From the IMG/VR virus record IMGVR_UViG_3300006065_000007, positions 1-20,458 of that record: a DNA stretch of 20,458 bases. One strand, 5' to 3'. Positions 1-16,923 of this stretch are shown here, in pieces (the first letter of the stretch is position 1; each line of letters begins with the position of its first letter). Made by a program: the position numbers and the translations under genes. The notes below the pieces were generated by a model. The model searched no databases, was not told the DNA's origin, and saw nothing but the letters and a program-made list of their open reading frames with translations. This DNA is from a virus.

Positions 1-40
1 GTGAAGTCGCTGTTGAACAATTAACAATTAACGTATTTGG
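1..40. repeat. Perfect 40-bp inverted copy of 1242-1281
   Basis: 1-40 gtgaagtcgctgttgaacaattaacaattaacgtatttgg is the exact reverse complement of 1242-1281. Confidence 0.95.
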
Positions 41-3000
41 CGTTGGTGTTGATGTAGGAGTACTAGTTGGTGTTTCCTCTGGTGTTATTGTTGGGGTAGG
101 AGTACTAGTTGGTGTTTCTTCTGGTGTAATAGTTGGCGTTGGTGTTGATGTAGGAGTACTAGTTGGTGTTTCTTCTGGTGTAATAGTTGGCGTTGGTGTT
201 GGTGTTGGTATATTTACTACGGTACAAACAGGAAGAACACAAGGATCTCTATAAACAAACAAATCATCACAACTTTGTTCTATTTTAATATCATAACATT
301 CAAACGGCTCTTTAAGGTGTGAAGTTAATATCGTTTTATTATTTTCCAAAGATATACCATTAAATAAAATATTATGTGTCAAATCTTCTGATGTGTATAA
401 ATGAAAATAAAGATTTGGTTCACAATAATTTAAAGTTATACCTGTGACTTCAATTAATGTTCCTTCTTGATCCATTAAAAAATCACCTTTTTCAATAGTA
501 TCTTCACAGCAAGGTATTATTTCACCTGTTGTTGGTAAAATAAGATCTGAAGGATATCTATATAAAAATTGATAATGACTTTTTTCTAAATTCTCATCAT
601 ATTGTGTATAAACATAAAGTTTTGTAGTTGGTAAAACCTCATATTTTTCATTTATTATATATCTTTTAATAGAACTTAAACATTCTTTTTTTTCTAATTC
701 AACAAAATTATAATCAAATGAAAATTTTGCACCATCATTAAAAATATTTAGAAAATATTGATGTGATAATGTATTTGGGTTTTTTGGTGTAATTGTTAAT
801 AATTTATCACCTACAAGTGTTTCTGATACTGGAATTTCCAAAATATCACCATTATTGATAAGTGTCATTAACTCTTCCGATGTTTCAATATTAGGTTCAG
901 TATTTCCAGATAATATATAAACAGTACTTTCTTTTTTTAATCCATAATTAAAAGACGTTTTATACTGAACATTTGGTTCTATTGTATAACCACTATATAA
1001 TTCATTTGGTATAACTCTTAATCCTTCTATTCTAAGTTTCTGTTCACAATTTGCGGCATCTAAAACTATTATATCAAAAAGATCTGTTTCAGTTACATAT
1101 GGAATTTCATAAGTACAACCAGTAACAAAATAATAATCATAATTAAAATCACATAATGTACATGGTCCGTCCACACAAATATTACCTTTACTAATGTAAA
1201 AATAATAATAAGGGTCAAATGGGTCTGTTTCAACCCCCACACCAAATACGTTAATTGTTAATTGTTCAACAGCGACTTCACAAATGTTAAAATCATCAGG
1301 GTATAGAACTTCTGGTGTGAAAACATGTACTTCTAATTCACATTTAGGTATAGTATTAATATTTGTTTCATAATAAAAATCATATGTCCAATCACATTCG
1401 ATACTTTCTTTACCTGAAATAGTAAATTTAATTTTTTCTATACCATCATTATCCGTAAAATATTCGTGATGTATATTAAAGTCGTCGTTATTTATATCTA
1501 AAATAAGTTCATCAATAGTTTCTTTCCATTTTTGTTTTATATCTTCATTGTTAAAAACTAACCAATCTTTAAACTCACATATTAGAGGAATGAAATCTTC
1601 ATTACTTCTTAAAACTGTACAATTCTCATCAACTATTGATATAAATTCATTAAAAAACTTTAATAAATCGGTGGTTTTCTGTGATTTTACACCATTTACT
1701 TCAATAACAACATTAAATGTTAAACCACTAAATTCGATTAAACCTCTAAAATATTCCAGAATTTTAGTTCCTGGATTGTCCTCTACAGTTCCTAATAATT
1801 TTTCTAAATCACCAATAACAATAGTTTCAAAATCAGGGTATAAATTTTCAATAAATGTTAAAGGTAAACAAGGACCACTAGAATGTTTTCTATATTGATA
1901 TTTAGATCTACCAAACAAACCATTTTCGATTAAATGACCACCTGACCATAAGGTAGTTGCAGGTATAAATTGATCAACTATATTAATCCAATAAGGACTT
2001 AAACGTTCAATAAATTCATTAACTTTTATAAAATTATAAGGGGTAAACTGATTACTATTTTGATAATCAAAATAAATGTCTCTTAAAATTTTATATTCTT
2101 TTTTATATTTTATAACATTAGTATTTGGTATTGTTTCTTGTATTAAATCATCCAAGAATTCTGCGAATGTTTTACCTGTTTGTGGTGGTAATGATCCAAA
2201 TGTTAAAAATAATGTTGAACTTTTAGTAAATATATCATAATCAATCGCTCTATTTGTTGATATAAACAATTCTATATTTTTTCTATTTAAAATATATTTA
2301 GAATCATCTGTTTCATCAGCATTTTCTGTTTTTAAATTATTAACCACAGGTGTAAGATCGTAACCATAATCTAATCCAGGTAATGTTCTTAAAGCATCGA
2401 AATAATCTTCACCAAAAGTAAATGGTTTAGATTTGGTTTTAATCGTTTTAATTCTACCTGTTAAATCAGAATTATCATCATCTAAAATATCTGGTGATAT
2501 GTGTTCTATTATTTTTTTATACCATCCAGCACCTTTTTCAAAAAACATTGAACCATCACTAAGTTCAAATTTATTAGGTAAACCATTTTCTCTATTAACA
2601 GGATATTCAGATCTGGTAATATCAACAAAACTTATATTTGATTTAACTTTATAAGGTGGAATGTCAATATCTATTACGTTTGAGTAATTAACATCGTTAA
2701 AAGTATTAAAAGAAACTATTTGATTTTCACTAGAACCTGTTATTGTTCTTATATCTTCGTCATCATAATATGCAATATATTGAACTTTAGTACCTTGAAT
2801 TACTTCTGAAATATCATTTTCATATTGTTCTTTTGTTTTTGGTAAAGTATCGTTAACAATATATGTTAATTCATTGAAAATAATCATTGGTTCAGGTGCA
2901 CCTATAAATTTCATAAAAAATTCAATAGCACTTCTAGTTCCTTTTGATTTATAAATGTGTGCTAGATTAACTAAAATTCTTCTATAAAATTCATATTCGC

Positions 3001-4285
3001 TCTCGATAAGGTTTTTTCCTGTTAAATCTGCTTCATATTGTGTATTGTGTCTTTCATATAATAAGTCTTGTAAAGTTTTTTCATCAACAAGTTTTAAGGT
3101 AGATAGACCTAATGTTTCTGCTAAATTTTTTAAAAGAACATCTGGAACATTATTTATTTTATCATAACTTACATTTCTCATGTAAGCAATATTATCTATA
3201 AATTTTTTTACTTTATCAAAACTTTGACCATATAATTGAAAAATTGATTCTGCTTTTTTTTCTTCAGTATCAAATTCAAATAATTGTGGTGCAGTTAAAA
3301 ATCTTACAACAAGATTTGATTTATATTGGTCGATTTCTTCACTAATTGAACTTAATCGTTCAATATAATAATCAAATTCAAGACCAACGATTTGAATATT
3401 CCATCCGTCCTTAAATAATGGCCAAGTAACAAATTCTGTTATAAGTTCTGTTGATGACCCATTATTAAAATCTTTTGGTAATCTAAATTTTGCTTGATAT
3501 TTTGGAGATGTTTCTCTATCTAATAATACAGATTCTAATTCGTCTAAATTATTAAAAAATTCTTCTGTTACACCATCATTTGGTCTTATAAGATAATTGT
3601 TTAAATATTCGGTTGATCCTGAAAATAAATCACCATCTACTTTAAAGATTATTTTATTGGCGTTATTTGGTTCTTCATATGATAATATATCATATGTTTT
3701 ACCATTAATATCAATAACATATTTTTTATATGAAGAATAAAAATTTCTTAACGAATTTAAATCTTCTAATAAAGTATTTGTGTTTGGTGTTTTTAAAACA
3801 ATATCAAATGGGTTATATATTAAAGAGTTTGTGACAGTAAATTCCGTAGTATTTGTTACTATATCATAAGATATATTTTCCGCTGTAATTGATGTACTAC
3901 TAACGGGCATATCTTTATCAACATACAATCCTGCTGGAAAATGTTTTATTATTTTCTGAATAGATACACGTATTCTTTCTTTTAATGAGCCAAATAATGA
4001 TTTTGATCCATCATTTTTTGATGAATTAAATTTTATTTCGTTTTTTTTCTTACTATCAACATTTATTGTTGTAGTTTCTTGTTTTAAATCATTAAGTGTT
4101 AAAAAATCTGAAAATGGTTGTGTAATAAAATTTTTACTATCTTTTTCTGGTATAGTTTTATCAATAGTAAAATTAGTAGTCGTCATTTGACTACTACCGT
4201 CAGTTATTTGAAAACCAACTAAATTATCGCTGAATGTATCTTTTCCACTAGCAGCTTGACTAGGAACTTTAGTAAATTTCGCCAT
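1..4285 (-). CDS. Large baseplate/tail protein (>=1428 aa, 3' end outside window); P2 gpI / T4 gp7-like wedge region followed by a Cys-rich region and a Pro/Thr linker
   Basis: Not in the ORF track. I read the frame by hand from ATG at 4285 (MAKFTKVPSQAASGKDTFSDNLVGFQ...) to the window edge with no stop. The start overlaps the upstream stop (TAATG). It contains NNVPDVLLKNLAETLG and FYRRILVNLAHIYKSKGTRSAIEFF, resembling the 'P..L..LA' and 'KGT' motifs of gpI/gp7-type wedge proteins, and lies downstream of gp25 and gp6. The last 40 nt may be chimeric. Confidence 0.8.
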   Translation of the reverse strand, partial: MAKFTKVPSQAASGKDTFSDNLVGFQITDGSSQMTTTNFTIDKTIPEKDSKNFITQPFSDFLTLNDLKQETTTINVDSKKKNEIKFNSSKNDGSKSLFGSLKERIRVSIQKIIKHFPAGLYVDKDMPVSSTSITAENISYDIVTNTTEFTVTNSLIYNPFDIVLKTPNTNTLLEDLNSLRNFYSSYKKYVIDINGKTYDILSYEEPNNANKIIFKVDGDLFSGSTEYLNNYLIRPNDGVTEEFFNNLDELESVLLDRETSPKYQAKFRLPKDFNNGSSTELITEFVTWPLFKDGWNIQIVGLEFDYYIERLSSISEEIDQYKSNLVVRFLTAPQLFEFDTEEKKAESIFQLYGQSFDKVKKFIDNIAYMRNVSYDKINNVPDVLLKNLAETLGLSTLKLVDEKTLQDLLYERHNTQYEADLTGKNLIESEYEFYRRILVNLAHIYKSKGTRSAIEFFMKFIGAPEPMIIFNELTYIVNDTLPKTKEQYENDISEVIQGTKVQYIAYYDDEDIRTITGSSENQIVSFNTFNDVNYSNVIDIDIPPYKVKSNISFVDITRSEYPVNRENGLPNKFELSDGSMFFEKGAGWYKKIIEHISPDILDDDNSDLTGRIKTIKTKSKPFTFGEDYFDALRTLPGLDYGYDLTPVVNNLKTENADETDDSKYILNRKNIELFISTNRAIDYDIFTKSSTLFLTFGSLPPQTGKTFAEFLDDLIQETIPNTNVIKYKKEYKILRDIYFDYQNSNQFTPYNFIKVNEFIERLSPYWINIVDQFIPATTLWSGGHLIENGLFGRSKYQYRKHSSGPCLPLTFIENLYPDFETIVIGDLEKLLGTVEDNPGTKILEYFRGLIEFSGLTFNVVIEVNGVKSQKTTDLLKFFNEFISIVDENCTVLRSNEDFIPLICEFKDWLVFNNEDIKQKWKETIDELILDINNDDFNIHHEYFTDNDGIEKIKFTISGKESIECDWTYDFYYETNINTIPKCELEVHVFTPEVLYPDDFNICEVAVEQLTINVFGVGVETDPFDPYYYFYISKGNICVDGPCTLCDFNYDYYFVTGCTYEIPYVTETDLFDIIVLDAANCEQKLRIEGLRVIPNELYSGYTIEPNVQYKTSFNYGLKKESTVYILSGNTEPNIETSEELMTLINNGDILEIPVSETLVGDKLLTITPKNPNTLSHQYFLNIFNDGAKFSFDYNFVELEKKECLSSIKRYIINEKYEVLPTTKLYVYTQYDENLEKSHYQFLYRYPSDLILPTTGEIIPCCEDTIEKGDFLMDQEGTLIEVTGITLNYCEPNLYFHLYTSEDLTHNILFNGISLENNKTILTSHLKEPFECYDIKIEQSCDDLFVYRDPCVLPVCTVVNIPTPTPTPTITPEETPTSTPTSTPTPTITPEETPTSTPTPTITPEETPTSTPTSTPTPNTLIVNCSTATS
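38..208 (-). repeat. Coding tandem repeat encoding a Pro/Thr-rich linker (PTPTPTPTITPEETPTSTPTSTPTPTITPEETPTSTPTPTITPEETPTSTPTSTPTP)
   Basis: The anchor gtaggagtactagttggtgtttc occurs at 54, 96 and 150 (spacings 42 and 54 bp, both multiples of 3), in frame with the large ORF. Confidence 0.93.
1242..1281. repeat. Partner of the 40-bp inverted repeat (native copy, encodes EVAVEQLTINVF on the minus strand)
   Basis: ccaaatacgttaattgttaattgttcaacagcgacttcac is the reverse complement of 1-40. Confidence 0.95.
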
Positions 4286-5205
4286 TATTCAACATCTGTA
4301 ATAATATCTAAGTTTAATGTTTCGTCTATATCGTCTCTTTCTTCTCTTATTTCATATAACGTTTCATTAAATTCGTCTTTAATTTCATATAAATTATATT
4401 GTCTATAAATGTTATTTTCTTTATCATAAATTGTATAGATACCACTTTCAATTGCTTTACTTTGATTTCCATATAATGCATGTGCTAAAGTTGATTCATC
4501 GTGTTCAACCATTTCAACTTCAATAGTTATCGGATTAAAATACGTATTTGTGATAATTATTTTTTGATCTGGCTGACCAATGAATGGTATTGTGTTAGGT
4601 CTATTTGATGGTGATGAACTAGGTGTAAGTGTTAAAAACATTAAATTCGTTACCTGATCTGTATATCTATATCTTATAGCTTTTTCAGATACATTAGTTA
4701 GATTAGAAACAACTGGTTCACAATAAAATGATGATGTTATTAATCTATAAAAATTTTTCATTTTTGTATTATCTTCAGTATCGATATATTCTATTCTATA
4801 ACCAACTAAACCTTGTGGTATAAATTTATAAACATCATCTACTGGTACAGTTGATAAATCAACAACAATTCCTCTTACAGACGGAAGTGATGCCAAAATA
4901 CCGCAATCTGCTATTCTACATCTAATTTCTTTTGGTCTTATATATAATGTATAAACACCTAATTCAGAAAAATCAGCCGAATCTAAGGTTAAATTATATA
5001 AACCACCCAATATATCACTAACTGATGTTTCATCATCAATTGTTTCAGATGTGTGTATTACCGGATTTAAAATATCTGATGATAATTTTTTAAAATAAGT
5101 TGTAGATGGATTTTCTGTTCTATCTGATGAAAAATTACAAAAAATTTCAACATCAGATGAATCTACATCCGAAGGTCTAATATTGCCAAATGATCCAATT
5201 GCCAT
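4285..5205 (-). CDS. Hypothetical protein (306 aa), probably virion/baseplate-associated
   Basis: Long ORF with ATG start, inside the baseplate cluster, coupled by TAATG to the gpI/gp7-like gene. No recognisable catalytic motif. Confidence 0.75.
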   Translation of the reverse strand: MAIGSFGNIRPSDVDSSDVEIFCNFSSDRTENPSTTYFKKLSSDILNPVIHTSETIDDETSVSDILGGLYNLTLDSADFSELGVYTLYIRPKEIRCRIADCGILASLPSVRGIVVDLSTVPVDDVYKFIPQGLVGYRIEYIDTEDNTKMKNFYRLITSSFYCEPVVSNLTNVSEKAIRYRYTDQVTNLMFLTLTPSSSPSNRPNTIPFIGQPDQKIIITNTYFNPITIEVEMVEHDESTLAHALYGNQSKAIESGIYTIYDKENNIYRQYNLYEIKDEFNETLYEIREERDDIDETLNLDIITDVE

Positions 5206-5212
5206 GTTTTTT

Positions 5213-5224
5213 TATTTATAAATA
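5213..5224 (-). promoter_or_regulatory. Putative late promoter: palindrome TATTTATAAATA containing sense TATTTATA and TATAAATA
   Basis: Lies in a 25-bp intergenic gap upstream of ATG 5205. The same sense TATTTATA octamer precedes three other genes. Confidence 0.5.
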
Positions 5225-5230
5225 TAAAAA

Positions 5231-6331
5231 TTATTGTTTTTTAACATCAAAAAATCCATTTCCATAAATTTCTAATTCACCTGTACTTTTGATTTCAGAT
5301 AATCTAAAATTTCTTTCCATTACCCCTAGTTTCCCTCTTTCAACAAAAATATCAGAATAAATTGTTGGTTCTTCAACAAAACCTATAAAATGTTCGTTTC
5401 TAGTTATTTGTCCATTATATTCTTCATCTCTAAAAAATATAGATCTATCTTCAGGTATAAAAACTATTGTTTTACCATCTTTATAATCTCTATATCTTAT
5501 AGTTTCAGTATCACCAGTAATACCCGAATAAGTAAAACTATATCCTGTATATTCAGGGGTAATGGTTAAAAAATCATAATTATTATTAGATCCGTATTTT
5601 TTTAATTCGTCTAATCTACTTACGGTTTCACCTGTTATTTCAATATTATCCGTATATCCCGTGAATTTAGAATAATTTTCATATTGTGATTTTTTATGTA
5701 AGTCACCTAGTGTTACTTCTGAATAAGGTAGTTTTATTGTTTTTTTAACTATCTGTTTATCCCAATCTGAAGTTTTTGTTAAAGTTAATACGTAATCACC
5801 TATCGATGTATATGTATGTGTAACACCTGATGAAACTGGATCCAATATATCTGAACTACCATCACCCCAATCGATTACAAATTCAGAATCTATTAAAAAT
5901 CTATATTTATCTAAATTAACTGAATTATAAACAGTTATTGTTTTACTATTAGTTATACCGGTATATAAAAAATTATATTTTTGTTCTATTTGTTCAATTT
6001 CTCCATCGAAATCTGACATAATACCTAAATTATTAACAGTTTCGGTTAAAAATATTGGTAATTTAAAATTAAAATTTTCAGATGTTATTTCTTCCCATAT
6101 GTTACCATTCCATTTGTAGTTACCATTTAAAACTAAACCTTCAATATCATTTATATTTTTAACGATATATCCCACTTTAGGTGTATTATCCACATAATAA
6201 TTTTTTTCCGGTTCGTTAATAATCCAAGGAATTAATTCACCGTCATTATTATACCAATATCCACCATATATTGAATTTAATTTTACTTTAGGTATAAATT
6301 GTTTTAATATTTTAAATTCTATTTTTTCCAT
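5231..6331 (-). CDS. Putative virion protein with a PKD (Ig-like) domain (366 aa)
   Basis: FVIDWGDGSS...VTHTYTSIGDYVLTLT matches the PKD signature (W.FGDG...HTY...G.Y.V.L). Located in the structural cluster. Confidence 0.75.
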   Translation of the reverse strand: MEKIEFKILKQFIPKVKLNSIYGGYWYNNDGELIPWIINEPEKNYYVDNTPKVGYIVKNINDIEGLVLNGNYKWNGNIWEEITSENFNFKLPIFLTETVNNLGIMSDFDGEIEQIEQKYNFLYTGITNSKTITVYNSVNLDKYRFLIDSEFVIDWGDGSSDILDPVSSGVTHTYTSIGDYVLTLTKTSDWDKQIVKKTIKLPYSEVTLGDLHKKSQYENYSKFTGYTDNIEITGETVSRLDELKKYGSNNNYDFLTITPEYTGYSFTYSGITGDTETIRYRDYKDGKTIVFIPEDRSIFFRDEEYNGQITRNEHFIGFVEEPTIYSDIFVERGKLGVMERNFRLSEIKSTGELEIYGNGFFDVKKQ

Positions 6332-6334
6332 TAT

Positions 6335-7150
6335 TTAAAAAGGAATTTGATAAAAAGTTATTGGGTCATTTGAACGTCCTATAATATCATTATTCATCGT
6401 CAAAACCTCATATGTATAATTATCTCTATCGATAACTACTTTATAGTAAAAATCATCGGTTTCTTCAATTTCATTACCAATTGTATCTTTATTTACAAAA
6501 TTTAATATTGAACCATCACCAGCATTAAAAAACCTTGCTGTCATATAAAAAGTGTTTCCTGATAAAATAGATTCAGAAAAAATTTCATCTGTTTGAAACC
6601 AATATAAAAAAGATAACTCATTATGTCTATAATTAGAACCAATAAAAAAAGGAACAAAAATATAATCATTTGTTGGTGTATAAAAAACTCTTTCACTTGA
6701 TGTTATAGGTAAATTTTTAGTCATCACAAGTTTTCTATTTGACCTATCGATTATGAAATCTTCATCTTCTGAATCGTTTTCATCAACTTTAAAAAATTCT
6801 AATCTAAAAAAACTATTTGTAACTTTTTTATGAAGAGATGCGTTATCGGAATATGATATATCTACTAATGAATAATCTAAACCACCATCATAAGTACCAC
6901 CACTATAATTATAAAATAAAAATTTATACCAAATATCAGAAGATAAGTCCTCTGGATTTTCAGTTATTCCAGAATATGGTTGATAACTAAATCTTGCTGT
7001 TTCATAATTTTCGACAGGGTTTATTATTTTACGTAATGTTTCATCTTCAAATTGTTTTAAAGATTCTTCTTTACCTAAATCCGGTGAAAAATCAGTTTCA
7101 ATAGTAATATTTAAATTTTTGTTTTTATTTTTATTTCTTATAATTTTCAT
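6335..7150 (-). CDS. Hypothetical putative structural protein (271 aa)
   Basis: ORF track starts at TTG 7156. ATG at 7150 overlaps the upstream stop (TAATG) and is the more likely start. Aromatic, beta-strand-like composition. Confidence 0.75.
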   Translation of the reverse strand: MKIIRNKNKNKNLNITIETDFSPDLGKEESLKQFEDETLRKIINPVENYETARFSYQPYSGITENPEDLSSDIWYKFLFYNYSGGTYDGGLDYSLVDISYSDNASLHKKVTNSFFRLEFFKVDENDSEDEDFIIDRSNRKLVMTKNLPITSSERVFYTPTNDYIFVPFFIGSNYRHNELSFLYWFQTDEIFSESILSGNTFYMTARFFNAGDGSILNFVNKDTIGNEIEETDDFYYKVVIDRDNYTYEVLTMNNDIIGRSNDPITFYQIPF

Positions 7151-8862
7151 TAACAATTTATATTATCTGTTGGGTTATTATTTCTAGGTATATTAAAGTC
7201 ATATAAACCATCTTTTTTGTTTGTAAAATATCTTTCATTTCTTAAAAAGAAGTTAATATCGTTTTTAACATAATGAATATTATTCATAAATGGAAAATCG
7301 GTCCCAAAATTTAAATCATCTATATAACCATGATCATATAAGTCTCTCCAAACCCACAATTTCTCGTTTTTAAGGTACTTTGCGTTCTCAGGTAGGTTAT
7401 CTATCACAGGACTATTAGATACTTCAATATAGGGGGATAATTCCCTTAATTTGACCCTATAATGACTCTGGTAGAATAACCCAAATGGGTTATCAATAGT
7501 TGACCCACTAAATCCATCAACATCTCCTGTTTGACCATAATTAATAACTTCAGTTGGATTGGTTATTTTATGAAATGTTTCCGATATTGTTCTTTCTCGC
7601 ATTTCACTAGGAATATATTCTATAAAAGAACCAATAATACCATCATCACCTTTTTCTAATGGTAAATTATATAATGATATATCTGTAGAACCAGTTCCAA
7701 TAAAATGTTCATCTATCCACGAATCATGGAAATTAAATTTATATCCCACTTTAGGTGGTGTAATAAAATATTCGTTGGTATTTTTAAAAACAATAGTAAC
7801 ATAAACTTCAGTAGGTGTATAACCCAAATTATTAGTTAAACCATTTAAAACTAAAGGGTTTTTAAAATCATAAAGAACATTTTCCATACGGTTTCTAACT
7901 ACCAAAACATCAGTTTCACCTTCACTATTTTCTAATAATAATTTTTTTTCATCTTTCCAAATTGAACTTTCAAATCCTAAATTATCAATTACATAATCAT
8001 TTATATCTGTTAGTGTTTTATGTTTATGTATATAATATTGTGATGTACTATTTTCTATATTGGTATTATCTATACAACGTTTTCCTGTTACTATTTGATT
8101 AAACGTTGTTCCTGATGGTATTTGTGTTTTTAAAAGTTTAATTATATATTTTTCAGAATTATAATTTTCATTTCCAGTAGAATTGATATAATAAACTTCT
8201 TCGTCTATTATTACATATTCACCAGTATTCATACCATGTTCTACAGGACTTGTTAACACATAAAAATTTCCTAATTCTGTAACTTCAAATGGTATTCCAT
8301 CACTACTAACAAAATTTAAAACATCGTCTTTTGATGTATATGTCATAGGATAAAAATCATCCTGTTCATTTACATAAGTTAAATAAAAATTCCAATTATA
8401 ATATGATGCGTTTACTGGTGTTAAGTATTTAGATTCGTCTACTATTAATTCTTCTGTTGTAAAACCTGTAAATAAATTTAAATCATCTACACTCAATTCT
8501 GGAACTGATTCATGTATATAGTCTTGTCTAATAAATGCAAACTCATCGTATGGTAAATATCCTGAAAAATTTTGGTTTGAACCATCACCAACTAAATAAA
8601 GTTTCTTTCTTAGTTCTTCATAATCATCTGAAACATCACCAAAATATAAATTTTTAAATACCATTCGTATTTTACCATAAATTTTATAATTTAAACTTTC
8701 ATTTCGTTCTTCGTTAAAAAGTTCATTTACATCTAATACGACGTTTCTATCACCATTATTTAAACTTTTATTAACTTCTTCAAGTTTAATTTTAAAAGAT
8801 AAATTTTCGTCTGGTGCTTTTTTATATCGTTTATCGGGTAATATTATTCTTTTTTTTTCCAT
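7150..8862 (-). CDS. Hypothetical putative structural protein (570 aa)
   Basis: Long ORF with TAATG overlaps at both ends, in the baseplate cluster. No family recognised. Confidence 0.75.
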   Translation of the reverse strand: MEKKRIILPDKRYKKAPDENLSFKIKLEEVNKSLNNGDRNVVLDVNELFNEERNESLNYKIYGKIRMVFKNLYFGDVSDDYEELRKKLYLVGDGSNQNFSGYLPYDEFAFIRQDYIHESVPELSVDDLNLFTGFTTEELIVDESKYLTPVNASYYNWNFYLTYVNEQDDFYPMTYTSKDDVLNFVSSDGIPFEVTELGNFYVLTSPVEHGMNTGEYVIIDEEVYYINSTGNENYNSEKYIIKLLKTQIPSGTTFNQIVTGKRCIDNTNIENSTSQYYIHKHKTLTDINDYVIDNLGFESSIWKDEKKLLLENSEGETDVLVVRNRMENVLYDFKNPLVLNGLTNNLGYTPTEVYVTIVFKNTNEYFITPPKVGYKFNFHDSWIDEHFIGTGSTDISLYNLPLEKGDDGIIGSFIEYIPSEMRERTISETFHKITNPTEVINYGQTGDVDGFSGSTIDNPFGLFYQSHYRVKLRELSPYIEVSNSPVIDNLPENAKYLKNEKLWVWRDLYDHGYIDDLNFGTDFPFMNNIHYVKNDINFFLRNERYFTNKKDGLYDFNIPRNNNPTDNINC

Positions 8863-11800
8863 TATTCTATTGGGTTAAAAAAATCTTTAGGACCAAAATT
8901 TTCAATAAATCTATCTAAACCTGTTTTTCCGGGTCTTAATCCAAAATAAAACGTAAAAGGTGTTGATAGAATTTGTCTGTTTGATGTATAATAATCTTGT
9001 GTTTTTCTTATTATAAAAGTTCCAATATTCCATTGAGTTGTATCCCAACTAGTTATTGTAATTCCAGTATCTACTTTAGTATATAAAATACCTGATGTTG
9101 GATTATCTTCAGTACCACCAGTTACTTCTAAATATGTAAAACCAGGGTATGCTGATTCATATAATGTTTCTGAAAATGGTGTTTCTGATATTACATTAAA
9201 ATCTAAAGATAAATCCGAATCGAATGTAAAACCGGTATATGTAAAACCAGAATACGTATATGTCATTGGTAATAATAAATATTTATTATTATCAGTTATA
9301 GTAGTTCCACCGACATTATACATTCCTTGTAACGGTTGTACAGTTATTCCACTATATTTATAGTCCCAAGATTGATCGTCCATTCCCGAACCAGATGTAG
9401 GACCGAATCCAGTACCTTTCTTATCCCATAGATAAAATGGAACTAATTGTGATGATTCAGTTAAATTACCAGGTTGATTTATACATGCACGAATTCTTTG
9501 ACCATCACCACTTAAATAAAATGTTATTGCTATAGGTCCACCATTAAAAATTTGATTTGTTGGTGGTGCATCAGGATCTAAAAATTGAAAAGAATAACCA
9601 GCATAATTTAAACTTTGTAAATCAAACTCTTCAATACCTGTTTCATTATGAATTGAAATTAACTGAAGTATGTCACCATCAAAAGCTCTTTTCATTCCAT
9701 AACTATTAAACCCATCATTATCAAAAAATTTATTTATATTAAATTGTTTATCTGCAACATCCAATCTATAATTAATTGCTAAACCCAGAAGTTCACCAAA
9801 ATCTTGAAAAGATGTTGAACCTATTGATCTTGAAACAGAACAATTAGGATCCAATGATTTGTCTAAACAAATTTCTTTTATAAACTCGTCTCTAGGTCCT
9901 AAATCAACTAATGTTGTTGGTCTACCCAATCTTATAATACCTGTTGTATCTGGATATCCAGTAAAACCTGTTAATGGATCTAAAAGTGGATTAAAAAGTG
10001 TTGATCTATAATAAAACCTTTCATCTATTTCACTATAATGTAATAATTTTTTACAATATTTTACCTTAGTTTCCTTTTTCTTATCTTTTATTTTAGATTT
10101 AAATTGAAAGAAATATAACGAACCAGATAACCAATTATCGATATATGAAAAATTAACTATACCACCACAAAATAATGTACCAATACGTTTTCTTCTGTAA
10201 TATTCTAATATAATACCTAATAAACGACCATTTGTTTGAGTACCAGGAACAACATAAAAAATACCATTAGAAAATTCAGATTGTCCAGATTCGGTAATTA
10301 AACTATATGTTTCATTTTTATATTTTTCAACAAGTTTTCTATTACCATTTCTATTTGATAAATTAGTTCCTGAAACTTCCATTCCTGCAGTATAACCACT
10401 TAATGGAATAATTTCTCTATTAGGTCCATAATAAAATTCTATAACTTCTTCATTATAAGGTACATCATAAATATCACAACCAGATTCCATTTCAATAATA
10501 GTACCTTCAGTATCACCACTAAAAACAGTTAATGAATATATAGGTACGTTATTATAAGTAATATTTTCATTAAATACCCTATCTCTATCTAAAAAATAAA
10601 ATGTACCACTATCTTCATAAAAATATTTATCATCACTTATATATAAAGGAACACCATTATAAAGAATAAAATAAGAACTACCATTAGTTATTAATTCTTG
10701 TTTCAATTCGTCTTCTGCGGTTACACCTGTATATATTGTAATTCCGGTACATACTACATTATCTTGTGTTATATTTGTTATTTCAACATCGTTTGATGAA
10801 CTATTACCTAAAATAGTTGCGGTAGCAAATAAACAATAATTATCATCATTAATTAATCCCGCAGCTTCATTATAATTTAAATCTTCATCGTCTCTACATT
10901 CATCACATTCTGGATATGTTATTAAATATAATTTCTTTTGTCCTGATGATTGTAAACTATATGCTCCCTTTCTAAATGGTTCTTCTAAAAATCTAGTTGG
11001 CCATTGATCAAAAATATTTGCAATACTATGTAAAAAATTTGCTAGAGTATTAAAAACCAATAAAATAACTAAATTAAACACATGTTCCACAAATAATAAC
11101 ATATCTGCAATTAATAATTGAAATGTGTAATTTTTAACACCAAAATTTACAGGTGGTGTTACAGCGTCACCACCACAATCATCATCATCCCCTGGAACAG
11201 CATCTTTAATACCTAAAAATCTATCTTTTTCCATCGTATTTCCCTTAAAATGTGAACCATTAAAAGATGAAACAGTGTAAACTTTATTATACGTGACTCT
11301 ATAAAAATAATCTTTAGGTTGAAAAAAACCGTCTGATGAATTTAGAATTAAATCTATTGAATCTTCAGGGTAGTCTTGAAAATCTAATGAAAATGAATAA
11401 GATTTTGATTCTTCATCATTGTATTCTCTTATATTTGGAACTAAATAACTACCAATAGTTCTTGTTCTTGATAAGCCAGAATCATTTAAACTTAATCTTA
11501 ATCTATAACAAGATGATGTAGGTATTCCAATGTTGGGATTATTAGTATATTCGTTTTCACCAAATTCATTTGTATATATATATTCCATATTCATAGGTAA
11601 TAGAATCATAAATGAACCTTCATCATCTATTGTTCCTAAATTTTCAATATATTCTAACAATGGTTTTCCATCTTCATCATATTGTGATGTGAATCTTATA
11701 CCTTCAACTATACCAGATTTTGTTATTAATTCACATTTTTTACCCATTTTTTTCTTGGGTGTACAATTTTTATTGATAGACATTTTATCTGAATCAGTAT

Positions 11801-12578
11801 ATGTTCCACCTATTAGATATGCATTAGGTTCTATTTTCAATCCATATTCTGATAAATCAAAATCTGTTCGTGTTATGGAAATGTCACATAATTCTGGATT
11901 ACCCCAGAATGGATAAACCTCGATAGTTTTATCAAATGTTTTTATTTGTGGTAAACTATTTAAATTTTCACTAGCATCAAATTCATAATTATTTTTAAAT
12001 TGACCGACACTAGCACCATTTATAATAAAATCATATGGTCTTAAAGAAAAACAACCAATATCCGATAAATCTAAATCAACATGTAAAATTTGTTGACCTA
12101 TTGGTACACCCCATATCATAAAATCACCAGCATCATTTGTTTTTACTGTGTATTTATAATATTTTTCATATACTTCTAAAATTTCGTCCCTTGTTAATAT
12201 ATCTAATTGATCTGGAAAAGTACCAGTCGCTTCATGTCCGCCATGTTGTTTTCTTGCTGGTAATAAATTATAACGAAATCCATCTTCATTTAAATCACTT
12301 GGTGATTTATATGGATATAATTCTGAAATTACAGGGTCATCCTCATCTTCTTCAGATAAAGGAACAAAAATAGAAATTTTTGCGTTTGGTACACCGAAAC
12401 CATTGTTAACAGTTATTCTACCAACAACAACACCATAATCAGAACATAATGAAGTATATATATCTTTTTGTGTTAATTTTAAAGATAGTATTTCTAACAA
12501 ATCAAAAGATTGTTGTAATTCAACTGTGATTTTTTGGTTACTACCGATATCGGTTTTAATTCTAAATTTTTCCATCAT
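8862..12578 (-). CDS. Large putative baseplate/tail-associated protein (1238 aa) with an N-terminal carboxypeptidase-regulatory/prealbumin-like beta-sandwich and a central hydrophobic segment
   Basis: GVVVGRITVNNGFGVPNAKISIF...TVKTNDAGDFMIWGVPIGQQILHV resembles the G.I.G.V...G.P..A.V...TD..G.F.I..VP.G pattern of CarboxypepD_reg-like domains. Directly follows gp6. Confidence 0.7.
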   Translation of the reverse strand: MMEKFRIKTDIGSNQKITVELQQSFDLLEILSLKLTQKDIYTSLCSDYGVVVGRITVNNGFGVPNAKISIFVPLSEEDEDDPVISELYPYKSPSDLNEDGFRYNLLPARKQHGGHEATGTFPDQLDILTRDEILEVYEKYYKYTVKTNDAGDFMIWGVPIGQQILHVDLDLSDIGCFSLRPYDFIINGASVGQFKNNYEFDASENLNSLPQIKTFDKTIEVYPFWGNPELCDISITRTDFDLSEYGLKIEPNAYLIGGTYTDSDKMSINKNCTPKKKMGKKCELITKSGIVEGIRFTSQYDEDGKPLLEYIENLGTIDDEGSFMILLPMNMEYIYTNEFGENEYTNNPNIGIPTSSCYRLRLSLNDSGLSRTRTIGSYLVPNIREYNDEESKSYSFSLDFQDYPEDSIDLILNSSDGFFQPKDYFYRVTYNKVYTVSSFNGSHFKGNTMEKDRFLGIKDAVPGDDDDCGGDAVTPPVNFGVKNYTFQLLIADMLLFVEHVFNLVILLVFNTLANFLHSIANIFDQWPTRFLEEPFRKGAYSLQSSGQKKLYLITYPECDECRDDEDLNYNEAAGLINDDNYCLFATATILGNSSSNDVEITNITQDNVVCTGITIYTGVTAEDELKQELITNGSSYFILYNGVPLYISDDKYFYEDSGTFYFLDRDRVFNENITYNNVPIYSLTVFSGDTEGTIIEMESGCDIYDVPYNEEVIEFYYGPNREIIPLSGYTAGMEVSGTNLSNRNGNRKLVEKYKNETYSLITESGQSEFSNGIFYVVPGTQTNGRLLGIILEYYRRKRIGTLFCGGIVNFSYIDNWLSGSLYFFQFKSKIKDKKKETKVKYCKKLLHYSEIDERFYYRSTLFNPLLDPLTGFTGYPDTTGIIRLGRPTTLVDLGPRDEFIKEICLDKSLDPNCSVSRSIGSTSFQDFGELLGLAINYRLDVADKQFNINKFFDNDGFNSYGMKRAFDGDILQLISIHNETGIEEFDLQSLNYAGYSFQFLDPDAPPTNQIFNGGPIAITFYLSGDGQRIRACINQPGNLTESSQLVPFYLWDKKGTGFGPTSGSGMDDQSWDYKYSGITVQPLQGMYNVGGTTITDNNKYLLLPMTYTYSGFTYTGFTFDSDLSLDFNVISETPFSETLYESAYPGFTYLEVTGGTEDNPTSGILYTKVDTGITITSWDTTQWNIGTFIIRKTQDYYTSNRQILSTPFTFYFGLRPGKTGLDRFIENFGPKDFFNPIE

Positions 12579-12634: not shown

Positions 12635-14467
12635 TTAATATGTAGTGGAAGTAAGACTTTTAACCCTAATTTTTATATCATTTTCTGGATATCTAAGTTG
12701 AAATATTTGATTTGATTTCATAAAAATAATCATATCTGATTGTGAAATTTCTTTTGTGGTATCATCAACATATGATTGTGATACTTCAGAAATCGAATAT
12801 TTTCCACCAATTTTATTGAAAACTCTAATGTCTATTATGTTTATAACACCTATAACATTACCTATTTCTCTCATTAAATCACCCACAAACAATGGATCAC
12901 CCATCGTTCTTTTTTCAATACTAAAAAAATTGGTAGTAGTTTCGATTATTTGTCTTAAAATATCTGTTTGATTTTCATTTTTATTAATCATAACATCAAT
13001 TTCTAAAGATAAATCAATAACTTCACCAGAAGATACTTCTAAATAATCATTTAACATTCTATATTTTGTTAAATAATTTAATATATTATGTTTAAGAGTA
13101 TTAGAAACATCATCAGATAAATTACCTTCATCATCATATGATAATAAAAGTATTTTAACCTTATTATCTTCTTCCATTACATTGACTTTTGCAGGTGCAC
13201 CAAACGTAGATGGCATAGTTTGAATCATTGATTTATAATCATTTAATGTAACTGCTCTGTTTTGTGCAGCAAAATTATAAGCTATCATATTTCTTATTTC
13301 TTCAACTGTCGGTGCATCCGCACCACCAATTGCTGGCGTTACATTAGTTACAGTTAATGATTGTTCAACTTGTCCGTTTATATTTGAATTTGGTCCATTA
13401 ATTACAAAGTCTATTAGTTCTATTGTAGATATAACATTAACACCTAAATTACTTTCTTTTCCCCCACCAATTCTATATTTAACAAATAATGTAGTATTTG
13501 CTTTTGGAACATTACCCAATGACATATTGTTTAAAAAGGTAGTTATATTAACTTTCATTGCTCCGTTCATGTAGTTATTTAAATTATCCATAGGGTCAAC
13601 ATTACCTGACCCAAATGTAATGGAAAAATAATTTTCTGGTGTATATTCTGTAATAAATTTTTTTGAAACTGGTATATATGTTCCCGCTTTGAAATTATTT
13701 CTATCTGAAACCGATGTTGAATTTTCAACAAAAACTTCACTTTCTACTAAAGATTTAACTTCATACCATTTATTTACATTCGACACAAACTCTGAATATG
13801 TTGGATTAGCACCATAATTTGTTCCATCTTTATGTATAATAGATGTAACCCCTAAAACATTTTTTTCTGGTAAATAAAACTTTAAAAAAGGTTTTTGATC
13901 TAATTCTGTTATAACTCTTCTATAAATTCTTGTTACACCATTAACTACAGCTTCCCTTTTTACAATGGTATAAGATACTAACTTATTGTTATTATCAAAA
14001 TTAGGAATTTTTAATCTATTTGGTTCGCCTCTACTATTAAATGGATTAGAAAAATCAATATCTTCAATTGTTTCAAAAATTTGTCCACCACCCGATACTT
14101 GTGCTCCTGCTCTTAAAATACCTTCATATCTTTCATCATCTTTATCACCTCTAACTGGAACATTAATACTGAAATCACATAACGCAACTGATGGTCTTAA
14201 ACCCGGTAATTTCATACCATATGTTTTAGCAATATGAAATAATGATTGTCTTTGTTGTGCAAAATCCAACATTGTTTCTTGCCATACTCTATCAATATGA
14301 AAATGTAAATTATCTGCCACTGCAGCATTTAAATCTAATAATACAGAATAAATTGATGCATCATTATAATTACTAATTAAATCAGGATAATATTGTTTTG
14401 TTAGGTTAATTAGTTCTTGTCTTAAACCTGAAAAATCCCTAGTTGCGTATGAAATCTGTTTTGACAT
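12635..14467 (-). CDS. Baseplate wedge protein, T4 gp6 / baseplate J-like (610 aa)
   Basis: N-terminal YATRDFSGLRQEL, ETMLDFAQQRQSLFHIAKTYG, and GGADAPTVEEIR...AQNRAVTLNDY are typical gp6/J motifs. Adjacent to gp25. Confidence 0.9.
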   Translation of the reverse strand: MSKQISYATRDFSGLRQELINLTKQYYPDLISNYNDASIYSVLLDLNAAVADNLHFHIDRVWQETMLDFAQQRQSLFHIAKTYGMKLPGLRPSVALCDFSINVPVRGDKDDERYEGILRAGAQVSGGGQIFETIEDIDFSNPFNSRGEPNRLKIPNFDNNNKLVSYTIVKREAVVNGVTRIYRRVITELDQKPFLKFYLPEKNVLGVTSIIHKDGTNYGANPTYSEFVSNVNKWYEVKSLVESEVFVENSTSVSDRNNFKAGTYIPVSKKFITEYTPENYFSITFGSGNVDPMDNLNNYMNGAMKVNITTFLNNMSLGNVPKANTTLFVKYRIGGGKESNLGVNVISTIELIDFVINGPNSNINGQVEQSLTVTNVTPAIGGADAPTVEEIRNMIAYNFAAQNRAVTLNDYKSMIQTMPSTFGAPAKVNVMEEDNKVKILLLSYDDEGNLSDDVSNTLKHNILNYLTKYRMLNDYLEVSSGEVIDLSLEIDVMINKNENQTDILRQIIETTTNFFSIEKRTMGDPLFVGDLMREIGNVIGVINIIDIRVFNKIGGKYSISEVSQSYVDDTTKEISQSDMIIFMKSNQIFQLRYPENDIKIRVKSLTSTTY

Positions 14468-14503
14468 TATAATGTTTTTTAAATATATTATTATTAATTA
14501 TTA

Positions 14504-14953
14504 TTATATATTGATGATTATGAAATCAGAAGATGAAAATGCTCCGTTATTAACTGTATAATCTATTTTAACTATGGCAGTATATGGTTTACTAGATTCA
14601 GATGAAACTCTAAATAATCTTTCATCTTCCTCTTCACTATATGTTCTCATTGAATCAGGATCGTCTTCAGCAAAAATAACAGTAATAGAATTAATATCTA
14701 AATTGGGAATATATTTTCTTACACCCTCTCTAATTTCATCTTCAATATGACTATGTGTTATCATATCATTTTGATTGAATATATATTCATATAATCTAGT
14801 TCCAAAATCAGGTAAAAAATATCTACTACCTTTTCTAGTTAAAAGTAAATGAATAAGATCCGCTCTTATTTCTTTTTCCGGAGTTGTTGTCATTTGTAGA
14901 AAATCACCCGTTCTACTATCTCTAAATGGAAAATCAATACCATATGTCGCCAT
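14504..14953 (-). CDS. Baseplate wedge / sheath-initiator protein, GPW/gp25 family (149 aa)
   Basis: GIDFPF...IRADLIHLLLTRKGSRYFLPDFGTRLYEYIF is the gp25 signature. Start moved from TTG 14989, which lies inside the terminator hairpin, to ATG 14953. Confidence 0.92.
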   Translation of the reverse strand: MATYGIDFPFRDSRTGDFLQMTTTPEKEIRADLIHLLLTRKGSRYFLPDFGTRLYEYIFNQNDMITHSHIEDEIREGVRKYIPNLDINSITVIFAEDDPDSMRTYSEEEDERLFRVSSESSKPYTAIVKIDYTVNNGAFSSSDFIIINI

Positions 14954-14956
14954 AAC

Positions 14957-14964
14957 TATAAATA
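14957..14964 (-). promoter_or_regulatory. Putative late promoter motif TATTTATA
   Basis: Lies between the terminator and the gp25 ATG (3 nt upstream of it), where a new structural-gene transcript would need to start. Confidence 0.55.
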
Positions 14965-14974
14965 TATCTATTTT

Positions 14975-15012
14975 AAAAAATAAAATCAAGACATTTTCTT
15001 AATGTCCTGATT
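14975..15012 (-). terminator. Rho-independent terminator after nrdJ
   Basis: Minus-strand RNA AAUCAGGACAUU-AAGAA-AAUGUCUUGAUU forms a 12-bp stem with one G-U pair, which pairs only on this strand, followed by UUAUUUUUU. Confidence 0.8.
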
Positions 15013-15063: not shown

Positions 15064-16923
15064 CTATTTAATTTCACATGCATTTCCAGCACAAGCAAGT
15101 TCCCCTGAAAGATTTGTATCATCTTGTAGTTCTATTACTTTAGTTAAATCAATTGTATGTAATTTTGAAAATAACTCATCGAATTGTTCTTTTGTACAAT
15201 CCTCAAATGGTGGTTGTTTATATGTTCCCGAATCATATGGTAATACCGATAATCCATTATAATAATCACGATTTATCCACATCCATTCACCAACTTCTTC
15301 CCATTCTTGGGGTTTTAAACTTATAGTTGCAGATACATTATGTGTATTAGAACCATTTCTATGACCTGGTTTAATCCAATTTTGTGAAATATGTTTTACT
15401 CTTTCTAACAATTGAATTGGTGATTCAGTTCTTAAAATAGAACCTTTTGGTGCCGATTGTGGAACAGATATTATTGCTGTGTCATGTGGTCTGAAAAAAT
15501 CATCTTCTAATAATTCAGGATGGTTTATCATTAAATAGGTATAAATAGATTCATTTTTTCCTACCCTTATTCTACGTATATAATAATCGTTATGCCATGC
15601 GTGAATACCACTTGAAGTACCTAAAACTAAAGATGCAGTTCCACTTGGTTTTACTGTGGTAGTACGTGCAGCTTTATTAATACCAATCAATTCAGCAACA
15701 CGTGCATTTTCCTCTTTAACTATTTTAGCAGTAATTTTCGTATCATATTGTAAAATTTTTCCTGAACCTATTCCAGTCATAGAAACACCAATAAGGGCTT
15801 CTTTTTCAGTTGTTCTTTTCCAAATATCCCTTAAATAATGAAAATCTGTATATCCAGCTTGTAATGTACCAATAAATGTAGCTGCACGAACTCTTTCATT
15901 CAAATCTTCTTGTGATTCAATATCTGAAACATTAACTTCACATAGATTACAAAATTGATTTGGTCTAAGAGCTATCTCACAACATGGATTTGTACCGTAT
16001 TCTTTATCGTTTGTTAAATAAATTCCAGGTTCTCCCGCACCAGAAGCTTCAACTCTATGCCATAAATCCATAAAAAATTCTTTAGTTATTCTATGTCGTA
16101 ATAAAACAGCTGAATTATTTGATCTTCCTCTTTGTGGGTTTTTTTCCCACCATTGTCCTGATTTACAAGATATCATTTCATTATCATCTGCACTAAACAA
16201 TGAAATTAATGCCGCTCTACGAATACCACCAGCTAATACAGCATCAGCAATATGACATATAATATCGTGAACTTCAATTGGTTCTAATTTATCACCATCT
16301 TCTTTAGATTCTAAAATTTTAGTTATATGATGAATACAATCTTTTAACGGTTGTGGTCCAGGTGCTTTACCACCTGATGTTACTAATTGTGCCCCTTTTG
16401 GTCTTATGTCTGAAAAATCAAAAATAGGTATTGACGAAGATAACCCAAAATAAGTTTTTATCAAAACTTTAATTGAATCCGCCCATCCTTCAATACTATC
16501 ACCTATCAAATATCGTCTAGTTCTATTTTTATTTGGTTTTCTAATTTCAGGTAATTTTTCTACATGATGTTTTTGAACTGAATAACCAACACCCGTACCT
16601 CCTAATAACAAGAACATAATTTCCGAAAAAACATCAACATGATCGATAGGGGTATATGCACAATTAAAAATCCTATTCGGACTAATTTCAATTGGTTTAC
16701 CACCAAATTGCATTGATCTCATTGATGGTAAAACTTTTTTAACATGTACAAATTGATAAACGTATTTTATTTCTTCTTTTATTTGTGGGTATTTTTTTAT
16801 ATGCATATTCATATTTCTAGTTACGATCTCATCCCATGTTTCTCGTCTATTTAATTGAGGTATATATTTAGCATACTTCATATACACCGTCAAATCAGAT
16901 AAAATTTTTTGTGAAATATCCAT
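15064..16923 (-). CDS. nrdJ: Class II (adenosylcobalamin-dependent) ribonucleotide reductase, monomeric RTPR-like (619 aa)
   Basis: Motifs RRETWDE, PSMRSM, FNCAY, GGTGVGYS, GGIRRAALI, GEPG, TNPCCEI (thiyl-radical Cys), CNLCEVN, TTVKPSGT and C-terminal redox pair CAGNAC. No ATP cone and no adjacent nrdB. Confidence 0.92.
   Translation of the reverse strand: MDISQKILSDLTVYMKYAKYIPQLNRRETWDEIVTRNMNMHIKKYPQIKEEIKYVYQFVHVKKVLPSMRSMQFGGKPIEISPNRIFNCAYTPIDHVDVFSEIMFLLLGGTGVGYSVQKHHVEKLPEIRKPNKNRTRRYLIGDSIEGWADSIKVLIKTYFGLSSSIPIFDFSDIRPKGAQLVTSGGKAPGPQPLKDCIHHITKILESKEDGDKLEPIEVHDIICHIADAVLAGGIRRAALISLFSADDNEMISCKSGQWWEKNPQRGRSNNSAVLLRHRITKEFFMDLWHRVEASGAGEPGIYLTNDKEYGTNPCCEIALRPNQFCNLCEVNVSDIESQEDLNERVRAATFIGTLQAGYTDFHYLRDIWKRTTEKEALIGVSMTGIGSGKILQYDTKITAKIVKEENARVAELIGINKAARTTTVKPSGTASLVLGTSSGIHAWHNDYYIRRIRVGKNESIYTYLMINHPELLEDDFFRPHDTAIISVPQSAPKGSILRTESPIQLLERVKHISQNWIKPGHRNGSNTHNVSATISLKPQEWEEVGEWMWINRDYYNGLSVLPYDSGTYKQPPFEDCTKEQFDELFSKLHTIDLTKVIELQDDTNLSGELACAGNACEIK

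Follow-up and report, generated by a model that had tools for sequence, protein, structure and literature searches.

We describe here a short motif, [ST]-G-x-T, that is strongly over-represented in putative outer virion proteins encoded on the first 20,458 bases of the IMG/VR virus record IMGVR_UViG_3300006065_000007 (hereafter the window, meaning the whole of this stretch), a record of 136,948 bases that CheckV rates as linear and 44% complete. The window has a GC content of 27% and all its genes lie on the minus strand, in an order that begins with a recombinase-like fragment, an exonuclease, a 152-amino-acid (aa) open reading frame (ORF), a DnaB-like helicase and the ribonucleotide reductase NrdJ. 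After NrdJ come gp25-like and then gp6-like baseplate wedge proteins and, beyond the latter, a baseplate-distal module of six ORFs of 1238, 570, 273, 366, 306 and at least 1428 aa. Five of these six contain the motif, with 30 copies against 2.85 expected from composition shuffles of each protein.

The locus and its source

2..4285, minus strand: protein of at least 1428 aa, open at the contig start and last gene of the module; seven motifs, at 3611-3622, 2168-2179, 1718-1729, 1112-1123, 983-994, 899-910 and 434-445
32..208, minus strand: Pro/Thr-rich tandem linker, residues 1360-1418, at the C-terminal end of the 1428-aa protein
4285..5205, minus strand: 306-aa protein, inside the module; no motif
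5231..6331, minus strand: 366-aa protein; six motifs, at 5951-5962, 5819-5830, 5651-5662, 5624-5635, 5516-5527 and 5507-5518
6335..7156, minus strand: 273-aa protein; three motifs, at 6962-6973, 6893-6904 and 6551-6562
7150..8862, minus strand: 570-aa protein; four motifs, at 8458-8469, 8104-8115, 7684-7695 and 7498-7509
8862..12578, minus strand: 1238-aa protein; ten motifs in residues 611-1171 (window 9057-10748)
12635-14467, minus strand: gp6-like baseplate wedge protein (PHROGs 219/6); no motif
14504-14989, minus strand: gp25-like baseplate wedge protein (PHROGs 261/43); no motif

The gp6-like and gp25-like core (12635..14989), which is 74-79% identical in relatives, was the synteny anchor for every comparison below. 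The six module proteins gave nothing useful in Pfam or PHROGs, and PDB sequence searches with the 1238-, 1428- and 306-aa proteins returned no relatives; PHROG 15511 matches residues 1357-1418 of the 1428-aa protein. The Pro/Thr-rich linker of that protein consists of two tandem 28-residue copies just before the ORF runs off the contig start, and the protein probably continues into a distal module beyond that point. Closing the ORF by joining the contig ends was considered and dropped, the record being a linear fragment. The 306-aa protein is the best conserved of the module (64-69% identity in relatives and 57-59% in the motif-free lineage described below) and is probably an inner or structural part.

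We classify the source as a freshwater jumbo myophage of a low-GC clade with genomes of about 300 kb, since the genomes of its relatives reach 288-310 kb and one of them has terminal repeats. We denote the source contig of the window G000 and the records of relatives G001, G006, G007, G008, G009 and so on; G007 is complete, with 310,542 bp, terminal repeats and 409 ORFs. The lineage is very common: gp6 occurs on at least 595 viral metagenomic contigs and the 570-aa protein in more than 1072 protein clusters. The clade has no cultured member: a search of the phage collection with gp6, and with the family 2 glycosyltransferase (GT2) discussed below, turned up nothing closely related. In habitat and genome size the clade resembles the 'moraphages', freshwater jumbo phages of 200-307 kb with predicted Flavobacteriia hosts and four core glycosyltransferase groups (PMC12619734). 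The window clade likewise holds several glycosyltransferases, and glutamine synthetase genes in G006, G008 and G009 also recall that group; the resemblance rests on these features and not on phylogeny. Hosts have been predicted as Bacteroidota for what may be the same lineage as the window phage, and the 'moraphages' paper, unlike our analysis, mentions no motif in virion proteins (PMC12619734).

A tetrapeptide enriched in five dissimilar proteins

A recount reproduced exactly the copy numbers given by the initial annotation, namely 7, 6, 3, 4 and 10 in the 1428-, 366-, 273-, 570- and 1238-aa proteins, although the protein with three copies, listed there as 271 aa, is 273 aa long. It was also right in placing all motifs of the 1238-aa protein in the C-terminal half, in finding none in gp25, gp6 or the 306-aa protein, and in counting a single copy in the other eight proteins of the window, which together span 2837 aa. 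Individual expectations are low: 0.95 for the seven copies of the 1428-aa protein, 0.36 for the six of the 366-aa protein, two of which overlap (SGITGDT), and 0.13 for the three of the 273-aa protein. The rough estimate of about three copies from composition proved accurate (shuffles of the five proteins: mean 2.85, sd 1.67), and the excess persists against these controls, the maximum in 5000 trials being 10.

The excess also holds once [ST]G dipeptides are taken as given. Of the 63 such dipeptides in the five proteins, x-T comes after 30 (T frequency 8.3%, binomial P = 2e-16); in the remaining eight proteins it comes after 1 of 23 (Fisher P = 1e-4 between the two sets). An unbiased scan over the full set of 24,000 patterns with three fixed residues (types abc, ab.c and a.bc) placed SG.T (15 versus 1.3 expected, P = 1.4e-11) and TG.T (15 versus 1.6, P = 1.6e-10) among the five strongest patterns of the five proteins, beside TPT-type patterns that stem from the Pro/Thr linker; neither is among the top 20 for the rest of the contig. 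Because the scan ranks both so highly, after-the-fact choice of pattern does not explain the excess.

The residue ahead of the motif is Y, F, L, I or V at 24 of the 30 window sites, exactly as annotated, and x is I, F, Y or V at 16 of them. Codons at the sites follow ordinary usage (AGT, TCN and ACN; GGT/GGA 20:9), and because they are mixed a repeat at the DNA level is ruled out, in line with the original view. Paralogy or a shared cassette is ruled out as well: no significant similarity was found within or between the five proteins, the best pairwise match reaching E = 0.001 at 21% identity without composition correction. The possibility, raised at the outset as one that would undo the claim, that the sites are positions of one repeated fold thus does not apply. 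A repeated unit such as a β-helix, β-spiral or tandem domain repeat was rejected given the irregular spacing of the copies (3 to more than 40 residues), the unrelated sequences that flank them and the existence of orthologues without the motif.

Strictness and distribution in the clade

Pooling the proteins downstream of gp6 from 80 relatives, in which shared ancestry inflates the counts of homologues, we find that position 0 accepts only S (464 versus 69 expected) or T (393 versus 92), position 1 only G and position 3 only T (857 versus 161), with S at position 3 enriched just 1.4-fold. The sole flanking preference is for the bulky hydrophobic residue ahead of the motif. Among the 120 best of more than 1072 members, the 570-aa family has a mean of 10.6 copies (range 3-17) against 0.66 expected, and among the 120 best members of the 366-aa family, which comprises 521 proteins, the mean is 8.1 against 0.86. 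Single proteins of these families reach 17-18 copies, and the window phage's 570-aa protein lies at the low end of its family.

Across the whole contig, seven ORFs hold 40 copies against 4.1 expected, whereas the other 130 ORFs hold 21 against 16.9. Two of the seven lie beyond the window; one encodes the tail sheath and the other a 348-aa protein, next to a fibre-like gene. Of the six sheath sites, five lie between residues 140 and 266, away from the conserved core of that protein (631-937). The capsid protein has two motifs, both in its N-terminal part. The same concentration is seen in the complete genome of G007, where 89 of 134 copies lie in 9 of the 409 ORFs. The shuffles, the codons and this census all support the initial claim of a short linear motif selected at the protein level on putative outer virion proteins.

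Tail modules of three distant phages show only 1.0- to 1.7-fold enrichment (Flavobacterium phage immuto, 20 versus 11.9 expected; Microcystis phage Mel-JY01, 5 versus 4.2; LR756508, 2 versus 1.9). Together with the sister lineage described next, they rule out a general property of β-rich tail proteins, which the initial annotation had named as a possible refutation.

A sister lineage without the motif

Contigs of a sister lineage were walked gene by gene through exact protein identity, and about 75 kb was recovered that is gene-for-gene syntenic with the window phage's contig. Over 24 orthologues this lineage has 13 copies of [ST]GxT against 12.5 expected, that is, no excess, and a second member of the motif-free lineage has 5 against 13.1. 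The copy numbers for six orthologous proteins are as follows.

Tail sheath (50% identity): sister lineage 0, G000 6, G007 7
1238-aa protein: sister lineage 2, G000 10, G007 11
570-aa protein: sister lineage 1, G000 4, G007 13
366-aa protein: sister lineage 1, G000 6, G007 9
1428-aa protein (sister orthologue of 1699 aa, 36% identity): sister lineage 0, G000 7, G007 13
348-aa protein: sister lineage 0, G000 4, G007 5

Since syntenic orthologues of similar composition show no excess, composition does not explain the motif and, as these comparisons indicate, the folds do not require it. Within the 1238-aa protein, the N-terminal 568 aa are 45% identical to the motif-free lineage and contain no motif, all ten copies lying in the divergent remainder. 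Intermediate lineages show 2.3-fold and about 5-fold enrichment, distant members of the 570-aa family have 0-4 copies, and a sister clade of that family (P0391-P0404) has 0-1 copies throughout.

Several other differences in gene content accompany this contrast. The only genes specific to the motif-rich side in the shared 75 kb are NrdJ, a homing endonuclease and two small ORFs (128 and 106 aa). NrdJ, a class II ribonucleotide reductase (window 15064-16923), lies between DnaB and gp25; the corresponding position in the sister lineage is taken by the large and small subunits of a class I enzyme (L204:93-2555), a swap of reductase class in conserved synteny. A 509-aa HNH/homing-endonuclease gene adjoins the sheath gene beyond the window (contig 38044-39573), with a homologue of 39% identity in G007; the sister lineage lacks it at that place. 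In G017 (L199-L200), a member of the motif-free lineage, nine ORFs without homologues in G000 or G007 follow the baseplate module (record 13152-23389), including a 307-aa ORF with a weak GT2-like match (15 bits).

Turnover of sites

An alignment of the 570-aa family contains 19 motif columns, each occupied in at least 15% of members and some in nearly all; the window phage's own protein has lost most of these semi-conserved columns. Across the 19 columns we observed 685 full motifs, 193 with two of the three fixed residues, 270 with one and 169 with none, where independent variation would give 500, 465, 282 and 70, respectively, in statistics that ignore shared ancestry. Full and empty states are thus over-represented and two-of-three states depleted, and the motif appears to evolve as a unit. 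Between G000 and G007, sites often occupy different positions within the same variable loops; at one sheath position, YSGET and YVGEK in the window phage and G007 correspond to YNGDV in the sister lineage. The expectation that sites would be gained and lost between homologues was therefore borne out, whereas the accompanying one, that density would be kept, does not hold strictly: motif density varies about four-fold between lineages. The comparisons show selection acting on the tetrapeptide as a unit, in parts of the proteins that are putatively exposed and fast-evolving, and not on particular positions or folds.

A proposed tag read in trans

A reader acting in trans fits these properties, because the motif is strict, lies on outer, fast-evolving and unrelated proteins, behaves as a unit, turns over, and is present or absent by lineage on the same folds. 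We infer that such a factor reads the tag. Our tentative proposal is that [ST]GxT serves as a surface tag at which proteins are modified after translation, O-glycosylation being the likeliest form; we regard this reading as plausible but short of probable since modification is itself a proposal and the obvious enzyme pair failed the comparative test described below. The tagged parts would be the baseplate-distal proteins, the outer sheath domain and fibre-region proteins, on which an enzyme would modify one of the two hydroxyl residues of [ST]-G-x-T. The leading candidate is an O-glycosylation that would take place in the cytoplasm as virions assemble and would give the particle a glycan coat. 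The clade's outer virion might, in other words, be marked by a strict sequon that an enzyme reads, that enzyme being not simply the conserved glycosyltransferase pair and perhaps being encoded by the host; we advance this with the same reserve.

The window contains no candidate for a modifying enzyme, as the initial annotation had remarked. Two adjoining genes elsewhere on the contig are of interest.

Contig 70195-70983, outside the window: GT2 (PF00535, 30.9 bits, above the cut-off)
Contig 69138-70187, outside the window, adjoining GT2: GT-B-like ORF, a weak assignment (PF00534, 15.7 bits; NCBIfam, E = 0.005; Atlas look-alikes)

GT2 is present in every relative's record of at least 90 kb, including all three that are at least 90% complete, and the GT-B-like ORF adjoins it in both G000 and G007. 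Downstream of the PhoH-like gene, the order GT-B-like ORF, GT2 and sigma-70 region-2-like gene (contig 69138-71685; L086:13139-15686) is kept in G000, G007 and the motif-free lineage. Glycosyltransferases are plentiful in the clade, which we count in favour of modification: a second, two-domain GT2 occurs in G001, G006, G007 (at 131.2-132.7 kb), G008 and G009. Sugar epimerase/dehydratase genes are patchy, being found in some clade genomes only. In G006, a glycan-gene island at 213-235 kb of the record combines a GT2 orthologue with four NAD-dependent epimerase/dehydratase genes and several more GT2 genes. Searches for GT9 (PF01075) gave no match in G000-G005, all of which are incomplete records (26-60%), and DUF2827 gave no match either. 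Looking for late-promoter motifs ahead of the glycosyltransferase genes was uninformative, the genome being AT-rich.

Several observations weigh against an enzyme-read tag. The motif-free lineage has both glycosyltransferase genes, at 43% and 44% identity, in the same place between the PhoH-like and sigma-like genes. The check for co-occurring glycosyltransferase genes that was suggested at the outset thus turned up a pair on the contig that does not track the motif; the pair is ruled out as the discriminating reader and does not explain the trait, unless its acceptor specificity has changed. Nor does any plausible enzyme gene in the shared 75 kb separate motif-rich from motif-free genomes. 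G007, with the densest motif module measured, has no match to PF01370 (epimerase) or PF00483 (nucleotidyltransferase), and sugar-nucleotide genes are therefore accessory in the clade. Furthermore, the other phage proteins show no depletion of the motif, which a promiscuous cytoplasmic enzyme might cause, and the column-state statistics carry the ancestry caveat given above. If a modifying enzyme does read the tag, a different phage glycosyltransferase or an enzyme of the host may be responsible, the GT-B-like/GT2 pair coming into question only with a change in acceptor specificity.

Possible structural and binding roles

The strongest competitor to modification is a structural habit without any reader, in which the tetrapeptide would be a favoured strand-edge or tight-turn sequence, its Gly placed in the turn and flanked by the hydroxyl residues, taken up by this lineage in exposed β-rich parts and serving folding, solubility or stability in the habitat. 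Two AlphaFold2 models bear on this, one of a 570-aa family member with 17 sites (predicted local distance difference test score (pLDDT) 77, predicted template modelling score 0.78) and a weaker one (pLDDT 65.5) of the window's 366-aa protein. In both models many sites lie at strand ends or in short loops, often of 3-4 residues before the next strand, as this explanation would have it; in the 366-aa model, hairpin loops contain sites 124 and 269/272, and the remaining ones are found at strand edges or in a loop modelled with low confidence. Where sites have been lost, other turn-forming sequences such as NG, DG or DD often stand in their place, with the Gly frequently kept, and the failure to find a discriminating enzyme gene in the shared 75 kb is also as expected if nothing reads the motif. 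Yet the context is not uniform: in a crude count over the two models, a strict strand-loop-strand arrangement holds for 4 of 17 sites against a background of 19%, and a uniform hairpin context was not supported. Orthologues of the same families in the sister lineage fold without the motif, which is also not a feature of the phage's own enzymes or inner virion parts. A turn would not demand so strict a T, as opposed to S, at position 3, or so few two-of-three states, and x is often a large hydrophobic residue, which general turn preferences make unusual in tight turns. We therefore consider a purely structural habit unlikely, though a serious contender. The fold itself offers little guidance: Foldseek found no match in the PDB for the 570-aa family model, the VIA wide search returned only a generic small barrel (residues 189-273, Z 7-8), and the only match in BFVD was an uncharacterized family member.

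The motif might instead bind directly, whether by docking a decoration or fibre protein or by making weak, multivalent contacts with host surface glycans. Such a role would equally account for a motif that is confined to the outer virion surface, is specific to a lineage and turns over while sites stay numerous. Three fixed residues are, however, very little for a protein-protein site; stoichiometric docking sits poorly with 17-18 copies per protein, with overlapping copies and with the presence of the motif on the sheath; and the shared 75 kb offers no candidate gene for a partner by which the lineages differ. We judge this explanation improbable, and less credible than the structural one.

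Finally, an artefact of composition, after-the-fact pattern choice or repeated-domain homology might be suspected of a pattern first found by eye and of pooled homologue counts inflated by common descent, but it is effectively refuted by the shuffles, the conditional dipeptide test, the 24,000-pattern scan, the dissimilarity of the proteins and the orthologue-matched motif-free lineage, and it can, like chance, be set aside for practical purposes.

Relation to known modification systems

Mycobacteriophage virions are O-glycosylated by phage-encoded glycosyltransferases (Freeman et al. 2023, as cited in PMC12619734), with glycans at the C-termini of capsid and tail-tube subunits (cited in PMC12619734). 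As far as that citing account describes the system, the likeness is that the window phage too carries glycosyltransferase genes, and that its structural proteins would be decorated during assembly, likely forming a coat on the particle. The difference is that the mycobacteriophage sites are C-terminal, whereas here a dispersed, strict tetrapeptide, a candidate site of modification, lies on baseplate-distal, sheath and fibre-region proteins. In a system of the mycobacteriophage type the enzyme would be expected to go with the tag; in our clade the glycosyltransferase pair is found in the motif-free lineage as well. We know of no dispersed sequon in the mycobacteriophage system.

The O-glycosylation motif of Bacteroidota, D-[ST]-[AILVMT], is likewise a three-position Ser/Thr motif that marks many unrelated proteins, but it has Asp before the S/T where the window motif has a hydrophobic residue. 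The two are distinct, as the initial annotation had it: D-[ST]-[AILVMT] is if anything depleted in the five proteins (6 versus 14.4 expected). General O-glycosylation in Bacteroidota acts on exported proteins in the periplasm, and virions assemble in the cytoplasm. TibC/AAH-type GT9 enzymes carry out cytoplasmic heptosylation of autotransporters, modifying many Ser residues at strand-loop-strand positions of a β-rich surface protein. Their substrate is a single repetitive β-helix, whereas the window motif spans many unrelated proteins. Our literature search found no dispersed sequon on phage tail or baseplate proteins, and full-text matches to SGxT or TGxT were confined to unrelated papers. 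What the present work contributes is a comparison, one orthologue at a time, with a lineage lacking the motif, a census of a complete genome and the finding that the glycosyltransferase pair does not track the trait.

Implications

A tetrapeptide that is 10- to 16-fold enriched, lineage-specific and borne on putatively exposed parts would, even if purely structural, represent unusual convergent selection across unrelated folds. If the modification proposal is true, proteins across the virion would be modified in a way so far undescribed for phages, and a tag serving as the modification site would be the first code of a sequon-like kind by which a phage particle is decorated. The motif-rich and motif-free sister lineages provide a natural on/off comparison for finding the reader. 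The group is common in lakes, public data containing over 1000 clusters of the 570-aa protein. A coat covering tail and baseplate could alter how the phage recognizes its host, how well it withstands proteases or grazers and how sticky its particles are, and structure predictions and host-range inferences for the tagged proteins would then be missing a layer.

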